A stretch of DNA of 64,000 nt from Candidatus Methylomirabilia bacterium (GTDB lineage: Bacteria; Methylomirabilota; Methylomirabilia; Rokubacteriales; CSP1-6), in contig JBGQHJ010000004.1 in NCBI GenBank assembly GCA_041497895.1, positions 11,888 through 75,887 on the forward strand. Reading direction: 5' to 3'. The position numbers were made by a program, and so were the translations under genes. Shown in pieces: positions 7,886-59,003 of this stretch. Numbering within the stretch: the first letter of the stretch is position 1; each line of letters opens with the position of its first letter. The notes beneath the pieces are model-generated. The model did no database searches and had not been told where the DNA came from. It saw only the letters and a program-made list of their open reading frames with translations.

Positions 7886-7922
7886 CGAGGCGGCCCCGCC
7901 TCGCTGTGGCGACGGCGCCCCA
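7886..7922. promoter_or_regulatory. Tandem 18-bp palindromes (putative bEBP enhancer) U1
   Basis: CGAGG-cggccccg-CCTCG c TGTGG-cgacggcg-CCCCA. Confidence 0.75.
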
Positions 7923-7929
7923 GGACCTC

Positions 7930-7958
7930 TTGAAGCCACCCGGCCCTTGGCCCACAAT
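7930..7958 (+). promoter_or_regulatory. Possible sigma70-type promoter for the sensor kinase
   Basis: TTGAAG-N17-CACAAT, ending 33 bp before the GTG start. Confidence 0.4.
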
Positions 7959-7991
7959 GCAGGCGTTCATGATCCCGCGCGCCGAGGCCAC

Positions 7992-10157
7992 GTGACCAAC
8001 TGGCTCGTCCGCCACCGGGTGGCCTTCGAGTTCGCGGTAGCCGCGGCCATCCTCGGCGCCATCGCGGTCGTGGCGATCGGCGCCCGCCACCTCGTCGAGC
8101 GGTACGAGGCGATCCGGCGCAGCACCGAGATCGTGGCCGAGCTCGACAGCATCCGCTCGGGAGTCACCGAGGCGGAGGCCGGCCAGCGCGGCTTCCTCCT
8201 GACCGGAGACGAGCGCTACCTGGCGCCGTCCCCGATCGCTTCCGCCGACATCATCGAGACCCACCTGAACCGGCTCCGCGGCCTCGCCGTGGATCGCCCG
8301 GACATCGAGCGGCAGATCGCCCCCCTGGAGATCCCGCTGCGGGACAAGCTCGAGGAGCTGCGGGACACCATCCGCGTGCGGCGCGAGAACGGAACCGAGG
8401 CGGCTCTCCGGCTCGGCCTGACCGACCGTGGCCTCCGCGCCACCGAGCGGATCCGGTCGGTCCTCGGCGCGATGCGGGAACAGGAGCAGCAGCGGCTTGC
8501 CGAGGCGACCCGCCGGGCCGAGCAGGCGCGCCACGTGCTCATCATCCTGGCCGTGCTCGCCACCGCCGCCCTGCTGGTCCTGATCATCCTGCTCGCCGAG
8601 AGCCGGCAGCGCGCCGGCGAGCTCCGGCTGACCCGCGCGACCCTGCGGGAGCAGGTCGCCGAGCACGAGCAGACCACCTCGCTGCTCACCTCGCTCGTGC
8701 AGTCCTCCGACGACTCCATCGTCGGCCTCGACCTCGAGGGGCGCATCCTCACGTGGAACCAGGGGGCCGAGCGGCTCTACGGCTATCAGGAGACCGAGGT
8801 GCAGGGCCGGCCGGTCGACGTGCTCCTGGCGGGCGAGCGGCGGGCCGAGATGGTGGCGGCCCTCGATCGGGTCCGGCGGCAGCAGACGACCGAGCGGTTC
8901 GAGACCGAGCACGTCACCCGGGACGGCCGGCGGGTTCACGTCTTCCTCACCGTGTCTCCGATCCGGGACGCGCCCGACAAGCTGATCGGCGTCTCGATCG
9001 TGGGCCGCGACATCGGCTTGCAGAAGGCGGCCGAGGAGGCCCTCCGCCGCAGCGAGGCGACCTCCCGCGCCTTCCTCGAGTCCGCCTCCGAGAGCATCGT
9101 GATCACCAACGCGGCGGGCGCGATCGTGCGGGTCAACGACAAGGCGGAGAGGATGTTCGGCTACGAGCGCGCCGAGCTGATCGGCCAGCCGGTCGAGATC
9201 CTGATCCCACGTCGCGCGCGGGCGGCGCACGTGGTCCACCGGGCCGGCTACATGGCCGCGCCCCACGTCCGCTCCATGGGACGGGGGCTCGACCTGGCCG
9301 GGGTCAAGAAGGACGGCAGCGAGTTCCCGGTGGAGGTCAGCCTGAGCTTCGTGGAGACCGACGACGGCATCCGGGCCATCGCTTTCGTCACCGACATCAG
9401 CGAGCGCCTGGCGTTCCAGCGCGCGGCCCGGCAGGCCGACAAGCTCGCCGCCCTCGGCACCCTCTCCGCGGGCATCGCGCACGAGATCAACAACCCCATC
9501 GGCATCATCACCTCGCGCGTGGAGGTGATGCTGCTCGAGGCCGAGGGCGAGGAGCTGCCCGCCGAGATGCGCAAGGACCTCGAGGTGATCCTGCGCCACG
9601 CCCGGCGGGTGGCCTCGATCACGCAGGGCCTGCTGTCCTTCGCCCGTCAGTCCTCCGGGGTGCGCGCCCCGGTCAACCTGAACCGGGTCGTCGAGGAGAT
9701 CCTGCAGCTCGTCAGGAAGGACATGGACCGGGCGCACGTGCAGGTGACCCTGCGACGGGACGAGCTCCTGCCCGAGATCATGGCCGACGCCAACGCGATC
9801 GGGCAGGTGCTGCTGAACCTGCTCACCAATGCCCGGCGGGCCATGCCGGACGAGGGCGGCGAGATCACCATCGAGACCGGCTACGATCCCGAGGCCCGCT
9901 CGGTCCGGCTGGTGGTCCGCGACACCGGGACCGGCATCGCGCCCGAGATTCTGCTCAAGATCTTCGACCCCTTCTTCACCACCAAGCCCGACGGCACCGG
10001 GCTCGGGCTCGCGGTCAGCCACGGCATCATCCACGATCACCAGGGCAGCGTGGACGTGGAGTCCCAGGTGGGCAAGGGCACCACGTTCACCGTGACCTTG
10101 CCGGTGGACGCCAGCCACGGCACCTTCGGCGCCGGGCCCTCGGCCCCGTCCCGATAG
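7992..10157 (+). CDS. Sensor histidine kinase: CHASE3 + 2 PAS (second FixL/EcDOS-like) + HisKA + HATPase
   Basis: AEAGQRGFLLTGDERYL (CHASE3) between two TM segments; two PAS domains; H-box GIAHEINNPI; FDPFFTTK, GTGLGL. Start placed at the GTG after GAGG. Confidence 0.92.
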   Translation: MTNWLVRHRVAFEFAVAAAILGAIAVVAIGARHLVERYEAIRRSTEIVAELDSIRSGVTEAEAGQRGFLLTGDERYLAPSPIASADIIETHLNRLRGLAVDRPDIERQIAPLEIPLRDKLEELRDTIRVRRENGTEAALRLGLTDRGLRATERIRSVLGAMREQEQQRLAEATRRAEQARHVLIILAVLATAALLVLIILLAESRQRAGELRLTRATLREQVAEHEQTTSLLTSLVQSSDDSIVGLDLEGRILTWNQGAERLYGYQETEVQGRPVDVLLAGERRAEMVAALDRVRRQQTTERFETEHVTRDGRRVHVFLTVSPIRDAPDKLIGVSIVGRDIGLQKAAEEALRRSEATSRAFLESASESIVITNAAGAIVRVNDKAERMFGYERAELIGQPVEILIPRRARAAHVVHRAGYMAAPHVRSMGRGLDLAGVKKDGSEFPVEVSLSFVETDDGIRAIAFVTDISERLAFQRAARQADKLAALGTLSAGIAHEINNPIGIITSRVEVMLLEAEGEELPAEMRKDLEVILRHARRVASITQGLLSFARQSSGVRAPVNLNRVVEEILQLVRKDMDRAHVQVTLRRDELLPEIMADANAIGQVLLNLLTNARRAMPDEGGEITIETGYDPEARSVRLVVRDTGTGIAPEILLKIFDPFFTTKPDGTGLGLAVSHGIIHDHQGSVDVESQVGKGTTFTVTLPVDASHGTFGAGPSAPSR

Positions 10158-10184
10158 CGGTGACCGGTCGCCCGCGGCGCGGGC

Positions 10185-11618
10185 TCAGTCCCGGTCCTCG
10201 CGCTTTGCGGTCTCGGCGCGCTCGCGATGGAGGCTGCGTGCGTGGAGCAGCAGGCCGAGCGCCAACCACAGCGCGATCACCGCCACCGGCACCGCGATCA
10301 GCCGCGGCCAGACGAGGCCGAGGAGGGCCAGCGCCACGAGCGCGACCCCGGCGCCGCCCATGATGCGCGCCTCGGCCGGACCCAGCGCGCGGCGCCCGGT
10401 CACCGCGGCACTCACCGCGCTGCCGATGCTCACCGCCCCGGCGGCGGCCCGACCGGCGCTGCCTCGCCGCCGGGCCCGGCGGCGAGGCGAGGGCGCGGTC
10501 CGCACCACGCGCGAGCGCGCCGAGAGGGTGATCTCGGTGGCGCGCGTGAGGTCGTCGAGGTACATCCGCTCCATGGCCTGCGCGAAGCCTTCGTCCTCCA
10601 CCGCCACGTCGAGCTCCCAGTTCCCGAACCAGGACTGCAGGTTCAGGTTGGTCGAGCCCACGCGGGCCCAGCGACCGTCCGCGACCGCGGTCTTGGCGTG
10701 CAGCATGGATCCGTTCCACTCGTAGACGCGCACGCCCGCCTCGAGGAGCGGGCGATAGCCGGCCCGCGACAGGCCCCGCAGCAGCCAGATGTCGCTGGCG
10801 CCGGGCACCAGCAGGCGCACGTCGACGCCGTCGCGGGCCGCCGAGCTCAGGGCCTGCACATAGGTGGCCGTCCCGACGAAGTAGACGTCGGTGAGCCACA
10901 GCGTCCGCCGCGCCGCCGCCGCGATCAGCTGGTCCAGGCGGTACACCGCGGCGGTGCCCGGGGCGCTCGCGATCACCCGCATCGCCATGTGGCCGGCGGG
11001 CGCGGCGCGATCACGGGCCAGCCGCGAGGTGCCGGGAGCCGGCGACCCGGCGGCCAGCGCCCACATCCGGGCGAACGCCTCCTCGAGCGCGGCCACCGCT
11101 GGCCCGCGCACCGCCACGCCGGTGTCGCGCCATGGCTCGATCCCGCGCGCGGGATCGCCCACCCAGTGGCGGCCCACGCAGAGGCCGGTGACGAACGCGA
11201 CCCGCCCGTCGACCGCGAGCATCTTCCGGTGATCGCGCGCCAGCCAGGCGAACGGGCTCGACAGGCCCGGCGGATTGAAGCCGCGCACCTCGACGCCCGC
11301 CGCGCGCAGGTCGCGCCAGAACCGCCGGCCGGTCTTGCCGACCGCGCCGAGCCAGTCGTAGATCACGCGCACGCGCACCCCCGAGCGGGCGCGCGCCGCG
11401 AGCGCGCGGGCGAACTCCTGTCCGGTCGCGTCGTCGTGGATGATGTAGCTCTCGAAGTGGATCGTGTGCTCCGCCGCCCGGATGGCCCCGAGCCACGCCG
11501 GGTAGTTCTGGCCCGCGTCCTTGAGCAGGCGCACCTCGTTGCCGGTGATGAGGGGTGCTCCCGACGCGCGGGCGAACGCTTGCTCGACGACCGGGAAGGT
11601 CTTCCGGGGCTCGTCCAC
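10185..11618 (-). CDS. cls: Cardiolipin synthase / phospholipase D family
   Basis: Two HKD motifs ([16 protein letters not shown]), WRDT, GSTNLN. Confidence 0.88.
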
Positions 11619-58425: not shown

Positions 58426-58434
58426 CCCGCCTCG

Positions 58435-58854
58435 TCAGTCTTCCTCGAGCACGCCCTGGAGCGCCCTCAGCACGTCCACGTAGCTGATGATCCCGACCAC
58501 CTCCCGCGTCCCCTCGTCGACCACCGGGAGGGCCCCGATCTTGTGGTCGAGCAGGAGCCCGATCACCTCGCTGATCTCGGACTCGGGCTCGACCGAGATC
58601 GGATCCGGGCTCATGACCCGGGAAATCGGAGTCGCCAGCTCCTGCCGGAGCGCGTCGGCACCCCCGACCTTCAGGAGGCGGGCGAGGTCGACCCGGGCGA
58701 GATCGCGATCGCTGAGCATGCCGACAAGGACACCATCCAGGGTGACCGGGACGTGCCGGACGTCGGCCTCTCGCATCAGGTCCCACACTTCTGCGACGCT
58801 CGCCTCGGGTGTCACGGTCAACGGGTTCGCGGTCATCACATCACGAGCGATCAT
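58435..58854 (-). CDS. CBS-pair domain protein
   Basis: SD AAGGAG; ARDVMTANP, VRHVPV, GMLSDRD, IGALPVV. Confidence 0.9.
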   Translation of the reverse strand: MIARDVMTANPLTVTPEASVAEVWDLMREADVRHVPVTLDGVLVGMLSDRDLARVDLARLLKVGGADALRQELATPISRVMSPDPISVEPESEISEVIGLLLDHKIGALPVVDEGTREVVGIISYVDVLRALQGVLEED

Positions 58855-58887
58855 GAGGATCTCCTTTGGGTGTCCATCTGAGGCGAG

Positions 58888-58903
58888 AGCAAGCGCGATG
58901 CCA
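58888..58903 (-). promoter_or_regulatory. sigma54 promoter P17 (CBS-site-2 protease)
   Basis: Minus strand TGGCAT-CGCGC-TTGCT; IHF-like ATTTCGGCACTTA at 58920-58932. Confidence 0.87.
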
Positions 58904-58965
58904 GTAGCGGTTGCACTGGATTTCGGCACTTATCTTCGGGCAGAGTAGCGGCGGGGCGCGGACAG

Positions 58966-59003
58966 TGGGGCGCCGGCTCCCCGGATGGGTCACGACGTCC
59001 CGG
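58966..59003. promoter_or_regulatory. Tandem palindromic enhancer U13
   Basis: TGGGG-cgccggct-CCCCG ga TGGGT-cacgacgt-CCCGG. Confidence 0.75.

Follow-up and report, generated by a model that had tools for sequence, protein, structure and literature searches.

The classical enhancers of NtrC are tandem 17-bp dyads upstream of glnAp2. TyrR/PhhR boxes have a TGTAAA-N6-TTTACA-like consensus, and the TyrR-type regulator carries an ACT-PAS N-terminus. The mycobacterial DevR/DosR regulon includes genes for universal stress proteins (Usp), a small heat-shock protein, CBS proteins, a nitroreductase, a phosphofructokinase (PFK) and a cation ATPase. The subject of the present study is an 18-bp palindrome, YGRGGC-N6-GCCYCR, which occurs in tandem as a putative upstream activating sequence (UAS) beside sigma-54 promoters in a stretch of DNA from Candidatus Methylomirabilia bacterium (Rokubacteriales; assembly GCA_041497895.1, contig JBGQHJ010000004.1, positions 11,888 to 75,887). 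The whole stretch of 64,000 nucleotides is called the window below. Rokubacteria are abundant in soil, and we know of no cultured member. The palindrome pair is a real, conserved cis-element, and the kind of system to which it belongs is well known. It most likely serves a specific two-component system of the NtrC family as its enhancer. The observations made here concern the motif itself, the tandem arrangement of its copies, their association with sigma-54 promoters and their conservation, as well as the linkage of the pairs to the response regulator P0001 and their co-occurrence with it; they make it probable that this one NtrC-family protein uses the tandem palindromes to drive a large sigma-54 survival regulon.

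The closest described system is NmpR (NmpRSTU), which controls an oxygen-utilisation regulon in Myxococcus xanthus; NmpR is NtrC-like and binds two dyads upstream of its sigma-54 promoters (PMC11841059; here and below, cited from parts of that paper). Its targets comprise a CBS gene, a single-domain Usp gene, a P-type ATPase/cbb3 cluster and others; a haem-based low-oxygen kinase has been proposed, and the promoters are intergenic and in part divergent (PMC11841059). In the DevR/DosR dormancy regulon of Mycobacterium tuberculosis, the boxes are 18-bp palindromes with a GGG-rich half-site; they always occur as tandem sets of two or more in helical phase, in which weak secondary boxes accompany a strong primary one, and some sites are common to divergent promoters (PMC3177182; likewise cited from parts of the paper).

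The initial annotation of this DNA did not recognise the motif as a described site of a bacterial enhancer-binding protein (bEBP). This agrees with literature text searches, which found no paper describing the motif, none on sigma-54 regulation or universal stress protein in Rokubacteria, and none joining bEBP, Usp, CBS and Hsp20, with the proviso that unsearched papers could exist. A term search of a survey of sigma-54 regulons found neither Methylomirabilota nor Rokubacteria mentioned in the parts of the survey covered (PMC12316311).

The tandem palindromes and their sigma-54 promoters

YGRGGC-N6-GCCYCR palindromes are present at all 13 loci named by the initial annotation, at the coordinates that it gave, and its description proved right in all essentials. 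Site scoring returned the same 11 pairs, one triple and one single site (spacings are start to start):

7886..7922: UAS pair, 19-bp spacing, 15.0 and 14.0 bits
14442..14479: UAS pair, 20 bp, 17.2 and 10.7 bits
15927..15984: UAS triple, 20 and 20 bp, two weak sites of 5.2 and 4.2 bits and a strong one of 15.4 bits
23267..23304: UAS pair, 20 bp, 17.6 and 10.6 bits
27670..27687: single UAS, 13.6 bits, divergent promoters on either side
40214..40250: UAS pair, 19 bp, 14.6 and 16.7 bits, divergent promoters on either side
44915..44952: UAS pair, 20 bp, 13.0 and 11.3 bits
46380..46417: UAS pair, 20 bp, 9.5 and 15.6 bits
47860..47897: UAS pair, 20 bp, divergent promoters on either side
49549..49586: UAS pair, 20 bp, divergent promoters on either side
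55335..55372: UAS pair, 20 bp, 16.7 and 12.1 bits
57269..57306: UAS pair, 20 bp, 18.6 and 7.4 bits
58966..59003: UAS pair, 20 bp, 15.3 and 6.3 bits

The spacing is 20 bp in nine of the 11 pairs and 19 bp in the other two (7886 and 40214), leaving the annotated gap of 1–2 bp between neighbouring 18-mers. With two or more sites at 19–20 bp in 12 of the 13 loci, the arrangement shows the dyad symmetry and tandem repetition of an NtrC-type enhancer. The half-site matrix, from 26 sites, has an information content of 12.8 bits per site when scored against the genomic GC content of 72%; the fixed G, G, G and C are nearly invariant. The preference for C at the first base of the N8 core, as the initial annotation drew the motif, is likewise borne out, position 6 of the half-site being C in 41 of 52 half-sites. 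The stronger site is the promoter-proximal one in seven of the nine window loci that face a single promoter, and this bias suggests a primary site accompanied by a cooperative secondary site. In the triple at 15927, both promoter-proximal sites are the weak ones.

Seventeen sigma-54 promoters of the GGCAC-N5-TTGC type adjoin these sites in the window, 13 on the minus strand and four on the plus strand. They are listed with the genes that follow them:

7819..7834, minus strand: sigma-54 promoter TGGCACTCGCGTTGCA, operon beginning with Hsp20 and Usp, from 7770 down to about 1455
14375..14390, minus strand: sigma-54 promoter, DksA-like protein, cytochrome c, PFK
15870..15885, minus strand: sigma-54 promoter, unnamed 179-aa protein, DUF2267
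23198..23213, minus strand: sigma-54 promoter, HlyD/RND pump, DUF302, archease, RtcB
27602..27617, minus strand: sigma-54 promoter, HAD hydrolase, P-type ATPase
27762..27777, plus strand: sigma-54 promoter GGGCACCACGCTTGCA, OmpA-like protein, Glu/Leu dehydrogenase
40146..40161, minus strand: sigma-54 promoter, Hsp20, PCMT, Usp
40292..40307, plus strand: sigma-54 promoter CGGCATCTGCCTTGCA, CBS, acyl-AMP ligase/acyltransferase
44836..44851, minus strand: sigma-54 promoter CGGCATCGCCCATGCA, Usp
46303..46318, minus strand: sigma-54 promoter, genes at 45526-46299 without a Pfam match
47803..47818, minus strand: sigma-54 promoter, malic enzyme
47963..47978, plus strand: sigma-54 promoter, small 103-aa protein
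49456..49471, minus strand: sigma-54 promoter, two CBS proteins
49652..49667, plus strand: sigma-54 promoter, small 133-aa protein, MlaC-like
55255..55270, minus strand: sigma-54 promoter, HU/IHF-family protein, CBS, 447-aa protein
57166..57181, minus strand: sigma-54 promoter-like TGGCACAGCGCATGCG with a weaker -12 element, 89 bp from the pair, GYD protein
58888..58903, minus strand: sigma-54 promoter, CBS, M50 peptidase-CBS

From the edge of the site to the first G of the promoter GG, the distance is 43–89 bp at these 17 promoters, the same quantity as the 41–87 bp annotated initially, measured slightly differently. The pair centres lie 61–107.5 bp from the GG, in keeping with the distance expected of an enhancer (roughly 70–150 bp). 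Divergent promoters flank four loci (27670, 40214, 47860 and 49549), as the initial annotation had proposed, with the site in the centre.

Chance does not account for this pattern. Lack of enrichment over the GC-rich background had been named at the outset as a finding that would speak against the motif. The pattern TGRGG-N8-CCYCA has six exact matches in the window against 0.38 expected, a number reached in none of 100 shuffles, and all eight zero-mismatch YGRGGC-N6-GCCYCR matches in the window fall at the named loci. In the whole 5.1-Mb assembly, single sites of at least 8 bits are not enriched (1302 versus 1356 in the reversed control), so only the tandem arrangement carries signal and tandem pairs alone were used. 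Of these there are 34, against seven in the reversed control, with a spacing of 20 bp in 18, 19 bp in 11 and 21 bp in five. An independent genome-wide pattern search for the 20-bp-spaced double pattern, with up to three mismatches, gave 22 matches versus three in the backwards control.

The tie of the pairs to sigma-54 promoters also held when it was checked beyond the window. A correctly oriented sigma-54 promoter lies within 250 bp of 26 of the 34 pairs, and among 68 strict sigma-54-like sites a pair is found upstream in 18 and in the mirrored downstream window in none. A blind scan of the 68 upstream regions for all palindromic 4-N(0-14)-4 dyads recovered TGGG-N10-CCCA (six versus 0.14) and GGGG-N8-CCCC (seven versus 0.3), both of which pass Bonferroni correction for 3840 tests.

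The spacing between enhancer and promoter is itself structured. In 30 cases from this genome, distances from pair centre to GG cluster at 60–61, 70–74, 81–85 and 90–97 bp, with a phasing vector strength of 0.61–0.64 at a period of 11–11.5 bp; distance classes about 11 bp apart are as face-of-helix looping predicts. An A/T-rich box, YAA-N6-GWWT, lies between pair and promoter in nine of the 30 cases (for example at 7848-7860, 14404-14416, 23227-23239 and 40175-40187, with minus-strand promoters) and in 15 of 28 cases at the P0001 ortholog loci of other genomes described below, as against one of 50 sigma-54-like sites without a pair and three of 5000 random windows. Its distance is constant to the pair centre (about 41 bp) and not to the promoter. 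The box resembles the reverse complement of the IHF consensus, and an HU/IHF-family gene is present in the regulon at 54926-55234. Between 40000 and 59500 (19.5 kb), a search for sigma-70-like promoters found none, with 0.7 expected in shuffles and little power at 72% GC; this fits a run of genes read almost wholly from sigma-54 promoters.

Two side observations concern sigma-54 promoters. A ACTTGAGCG box stands directly upstream of the GG at 47950-47962 and 49639-49651, at the plus-strand promoters of small paralogous genes. On other contigs, a second enhancer-like dyad, GTAA-N3-TTAC, lies 78–139 bp upstream of six other sigma-54 promoters (G000 C1:137449, C39:22175, C41:25484, C50:12691, C59:26368 and C81:18449). 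These six are among only 14 occurrences in the genome, and 0.03 would be expected in those upstream regions; the dyad is probably the site of a different bEBP.

The candidate activator P0001 and its candidate kinase

The window itself lacks a bEBP gene. Of the roughly 15 full-length bEBPs in the assembly, 13 have a receiver domain, and one of these, P0001 (G000:C25:33915-35393), an NtrC-type response regulator on another contig than the window, stands out by its linkage to the pairs. It has Response_reg, Sigma54_activat (E 3.6e-72) and AAA lid domains, a GAFTGA loop and a C-terminal helix-turn-helix (HTH) are visible in the translation, and it matches the structures of NtrC1, NtrC4 and NtrC. 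There is no paralog above 45% identity in its own genome. Directly after its stop codon follow a pair (C25:33851), a sigma-54 promoter and a Usp gene.

The same linkage is found in other genomes. Comparison with public genomes gave 42 P0001 ortholog loci of 58–96% identity, almost all titled Rokubacteria or Methylomirabilota. These loci hold 47 pairs and their reversed sequences none; 38 loci of non-orthologous bEBPs (at most 54% identity), including eight with a GC content of at least 0.67, also hold none. A pair lies 2–54 bp after the end of the ortholog in 19 of the 42 loci, all in other metagenome-assembled genomes (MAGs), four of the 42 having no downstream sequence at all. Fifteen of these 19 pairs have a sigma-54 promoter about 91 bp beyond them. 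The pairs in these genomes are conserved with variable N6 cores, and the distance from pair centre to GG in ortholog loci is mostly 72–74 bp. In seven ortholog loci a pair lies 60–220 bp upstream of the ortholog. Autoregulation of P0001 in its own genome was considered and rejected, as no pair is found upstream of it there.

Co-occurrence was scored in 150 genomes of the phylum, 93 of them in family f1; three unpublished genomes are excluded from the family counts, which were copied out manually. The 20-bp-spaced double pattern was counted against its backwards control, and the P0001 ortholog was scored separately, as present where the best E-value was 1e-138 or better. The best E-values are bimodal, and full-length orthologs thus scored are at least 65% identical, except in G017 (54% full-length and 67% partial). 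In family f1, the 46 genomes with the ortholog have 379 pattern matches versus 149 in the control, and the 44 without a detected ortholog have 157 versus 123. Motif excess is associated with ortholog presence (Mann-Whitney p = 8e-7), and no association is seen for a control bEBP (C23) present in 82 of the 93 family genomes (p = 0.58); these p-values are indicative and overstate the case, because samples drawn from related genomes lack independence. Ortholog-linked pairs occur in families f1, f2 and f10, and one strong site follows the ortholog in f8. In the window's own genus the ortholog is found in only four of eight sampled genomes (G019, G082, G114 and G123), so the module is patchy; it may be gained or lost as a unit.

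A candidate for the sensor lies in the window itself:

7992..10157, plus strand: sensor histidine kinase, CHASE3-PAS-PAS-HisKA-HATPase (Pfam)

Its start codon is uncertain, the GTG at 7992 being the first in-frame start after the UAS. The 7886 pair separates the kinase gene from the first operon, the two being transcribed divergently. Homologs of the kinase (42–63% identity) stand beside the ortholog in 18 of the 42 loci: in 16 they immediately precede it on its own strand, and in two they are its divergent neighbours. The next-best kinase of its own genome is 32% identical to it, and kinases beside non-orthologous bEBPs are 25–38% identical. Because its homologs adjoin the ortholog in 18 of 42 loci and the next-best kinase reaches 32%, the window kinase is the probable cognate partner of P0001, split from the regulator in this lineage. 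Where the initial annotation spoke of an unknown bEBP, the type of activator is thus retained, and in place of the unknown protein there is now a well-supported candidate, P0001, together with the kinase at 7992-10157.

The second PAS domain (PAS2) of the kinase aligns with haem-PAS structures of FixL and DosP at E 1e-10 to 1e-15, including the proximal histidine; no globin domain was found in the kinase in Pfam. Oxygen or redox sensing by this kinase is plausible.

Genes of the predicted regulon and a proposed mechanism

Genes in the window were called from GC content at third codon positions, with Pfam. Behind the window promoters are five Usp, eight CBS-pair proteins, two Hsp20 and one HU/IHF-family protein, together with RtcB and archease, a P-type ATPase and a HAD hydrolase. 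Fermentative and glycolytic enzymes are represented by ADP-forming acetyl-CoA synthetase, PFK, phosphoenolpyruvate (PEP) synthase/pyruvate phosphate dikinase (PPDK) and malic enzyme. A PCMT, DUF2267, the DksA-like protein, the GYD protein and an M50 peptidase with CBS complete the set.

The initial annotation had one activator controlling the whole island. A shared enhancer is indeed supported, and its confinement to this 51-kb island is not: of the 34 pairs in the fragmented MAG, the contig of the window carries 12, and 12 other contigs share the remainder, at least 14 of which have sigma-54 promoters. On those contigs, pair and promoter precede a Usp and a ribosome hibernation factor (S30AE, HPF), a YbaK-type editing protein followed by GroEL, an acyl/acetyl-CoA synthetase and a radical-SAM protein; LonB is also among the genes of the programme. 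They further precede two PAS-LuxR (GerE) regulators (C10:35439-36278 and C133:9446-10111) and a second PAS kinase (C8:2-1735), which suggests a second regulatory tier. The gene content as a whole reads as one programme of stress and low-energy survival.

In the proposed mechanism, a dimer of P0001 would bind each 18-bp dyad, and with dyads 19–20 bp apart (about two helical turns) two dimers would lie on one face of the DNA. Once the receiver is phosphorylated, the bound dimers would seed an ATPase hexamer, which would contact the sigma-54 holoenzyme bound 60–110 bp away by looping at a fixed helical phase, probably over an IHF/HU-type bend. The promoter would then be opened, and where a site is flanked by divergent promoters this would happen in both directions. 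The CHASE3/PAS protein at 7992-10157 is the probable kinase; given the resemblance of its PAS2 to the haem-PAS of FixL/DosP, low oxygen or a redox signal is a guess at its trigger. About 30 promoters would make up the resulting regulon, which would serve survival in a low-energy state. The binding of P0001 to the dyads, the kinase pairing and the signal are the predicted parts of this scheme.

Two operons or genes of the window deserve separate mention. RtcB and archease end a sigma-54 operon (15995-23213) with the RND pump and DUF302; it is the shared enhancer, not an activator of the RtcR type, that would drive this operon. A CarS-like gene at 44770-45513, coding for a bacterial homolog of CDP-archaeol synthase (E 1.7e-21), adjoins the 44915 pair.

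In soil metatranscriptomes (four runs from three studies), most genes of 39700-49650 have counterparts on contigs that are 90–99% alike, with low cover in the bins containing UAS regions. These contigs come from relatives, start, strand and level are unreadable from them and DNA carry-over is possible, so the conclusion drawn is restricted to the occurrence of related genes in RNA libraries.

Alternative explanations and known systems

Several points weigh against P0001 as the activator of a single regulon. A regulator that adjoins one target is not thereby proved to bind there. Scores within the window are circular, because the position weight matrix was built from the 26 sites of the initial annotation; the independent evidence is that from other contigs, from other genomes and from the blind dyad scan. 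Motif excess is also seen where no ortholog was detected, in G063 (10 versus 0), G118 (nine versus one) and G127 (11 versus five); the gene may have been missed in an incomplete MAG, or there may be another binder. Families f5 and f6 keep the kinase-regulator operon (55–58% identity) with no pair in the 10–17 kb around it; their genomes are smaller and of lower GC content, and in one complete genome of these deeper families a tRNA gene follows the regulator. The sigma factor gene rpoN (Sigma54_DBD or Sigma54_CBD) was looked for without success in this MAG, which is 86.8% complete; 12 of 12 genomes of the same genus have it, as do 19 of 20 relatives, and here it was presumably left unassembled or unbinned. 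The contamination of the MAG is estimated at 7%, and kinase and regulator are on different contigs. As for the signal, the distal arginine of FixL is not clearly aligned in PAS2, so haem or oxygen sensing is a guess.

The pairs might be a bEBP enhancer and yet be bound by a different sigma-54 activator, or by a hetero-oligomer, with P0001 a mere neighbour of one target. About 15 full-length bEBPs, 13 with a receiver domain, are available in the genome for such a role, some genomes without a detected ortholog show the motif excess, and the co-occurrence control was a single bEBP. Nevertheless, P0001 is the only bEBP gene of this genome with a strong pair beside it, in 19 of 42 loci the pair that immediately follows its ortholog is kept, and motif excess follows P0001 and not the control, which makes another activator unlikely. 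Further from the sigma-54 machinery, the palindromes could be operators of a non-bEBP regulator, either a PAS-LuxR/GerE protein as at DosR/DevR boxes or a repressor, while a bEBP acts from unrecognised sites or from solution. Their geometry and gene content do run parallel to DevR, with tandem, phased, GGG-rich 18-bp dyads and divergent promoters (PMC3177182, in the parts cited), and the two PAS-GerE regulators are themselves behind a pair and a sigma-54 promoter. However, sigma-54 promoters require an AAA+ activator, and apart from the partial YAA-N6-GWWT box the pairs are the sole shared upstream element, with centres 60–110 bp from the GG, whereas DevR boxes abut the -35 region (PMC3177182, as above). 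The spacing of the DevR core, GGGAC-N4-GTCCC, is not enriched in the window (three versus 8.5 expected), and the presence of the motif tracks a bEBP ortholog. Only a small probability is accordingly left to such operators.

That the palindromes have no regulatory function, being inverted repeats that arise by chance in GC-rich DNA, terminator hairpins of upstream genes or copies of a small repeat element, is largely refuted and retains the very slightest probability. In favour of it are the GC content of the genome (72%), the frequency of single sites, which is no higher than in the reversed control, and the position of several pairs just past the 3' end of the preceding gene. These points are outweighed by the enrichment of tandem pairs (34 versus seven and 22 versus three), by their orientation to promoters (18/68 versus 0/68) and by the preservation of pairs with variable N6 cores in other genomes. 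Four loci lie between divergent genes, where there is nothing to terminate, and terminator-like sites coincide with none of the eight loci in 40000-59500. A terminator or hairpin reading was rejected, the only terminator-like match in that interval being at 48330, away from the UAS loci. An enhancer for P0001 is therefore the preferred reading of the tandem palindromes, and its likeness to known systems is considered below.

With the classical NtrC system it would share tandem dyads for a REC-AAA+-Fis-HTH activator, oligomerisation on adjacent sites and looping to sigma-54. The sequence of the sites differs, the signal of NtrC is nitrogen status through NtrB, and the targets are more densely clustered here, with 17 promoters in 51 kb. 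The TyrR/PhhR box, with which the motif was compared in the initial annotation, has the same 18-bp 6-N6-6 geometry, and there the resemblance ends: the half-site YGRGGC is unrelated, and the N-terminus of P0001 is a receiver domain, so that neither sequence nor regulator type is that of TyrR.

NmpR is the nearer relative in kind. Both systems have an NtrC-type regulator, two dyads, sigma-54 promoters, and CBS, Usp and P-type ATPase targets (PMC11841059, in the parts cited). In contrast, the NmpR site is GCGCA-N5-TGCGC with 14–15 bp between sites, its sensor is a protoglobin kinase (NmpU) with a hybrid kinase relay rather than a CHASE3/PAS kinase, and about seven promoters are bound in its regulon versus about 30 predicted here (PMC11841059, as before). 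With up to one mismatch, GCGCA-N5-TGCGC occurs 10 times in the window against 12.6 expected, and at none of the UAS loci. The best matches to P0001 in Myxococcota are 42–54% identical.

If P0001 does control these promoters, sigma-54, whose regulons are usually small and specialised, would here serve a broad stress programme. With enhancer, activator and kinase defined, there would also be a concrete, testable model of how these bacteria enter low-energy survival and which genes they use for it. Binding and reporter assays are possible in a surrogate host, so that the organism itself is not needed.

The parallel with DevR/DosR lies in promoter grammar and in gene kinds (PMC3177182, in the parts cited). 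DevR is of the NarL/GerE type and acts beside the -35 element of sigma-70-type promoters, whereas the sites here stand at enhancer distance from sigma-54 promoters (PMC3177182, as above). They are more than 40 bp upstream of the -24 element, which is not the position of a Dev box; the half-sites are separated by N6 here and by N4 in the DevR box, and three copies of the Dev-box core GGGAC-N4-GTCCC are found in the window against 8.5 expected. It is conceivable, at somewhat less than even chances, that Rokubacteria run a DosR-equivalent dormancy or low-oxygen programme on sigma-54, with one haem-PAS kinase and NtrC-type pair, about 30 promoters and an undescribed enhancer that has converged on DevR grammar, that is, on 18-bp GGG-rich dyads, strong and weak tandem boxes, strict helical phase and shared divergent promoters. 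Such a regulon would rank among the largest known for a single bEBP, and the module, whose regulator is carried by only four of eight genomes of the genus, would be portable and patchily inherited. Two unrelated regulator classes, one NtrC-type and one NarL-type, would then have arrived at a similar promoter grammar for similar gene sets.

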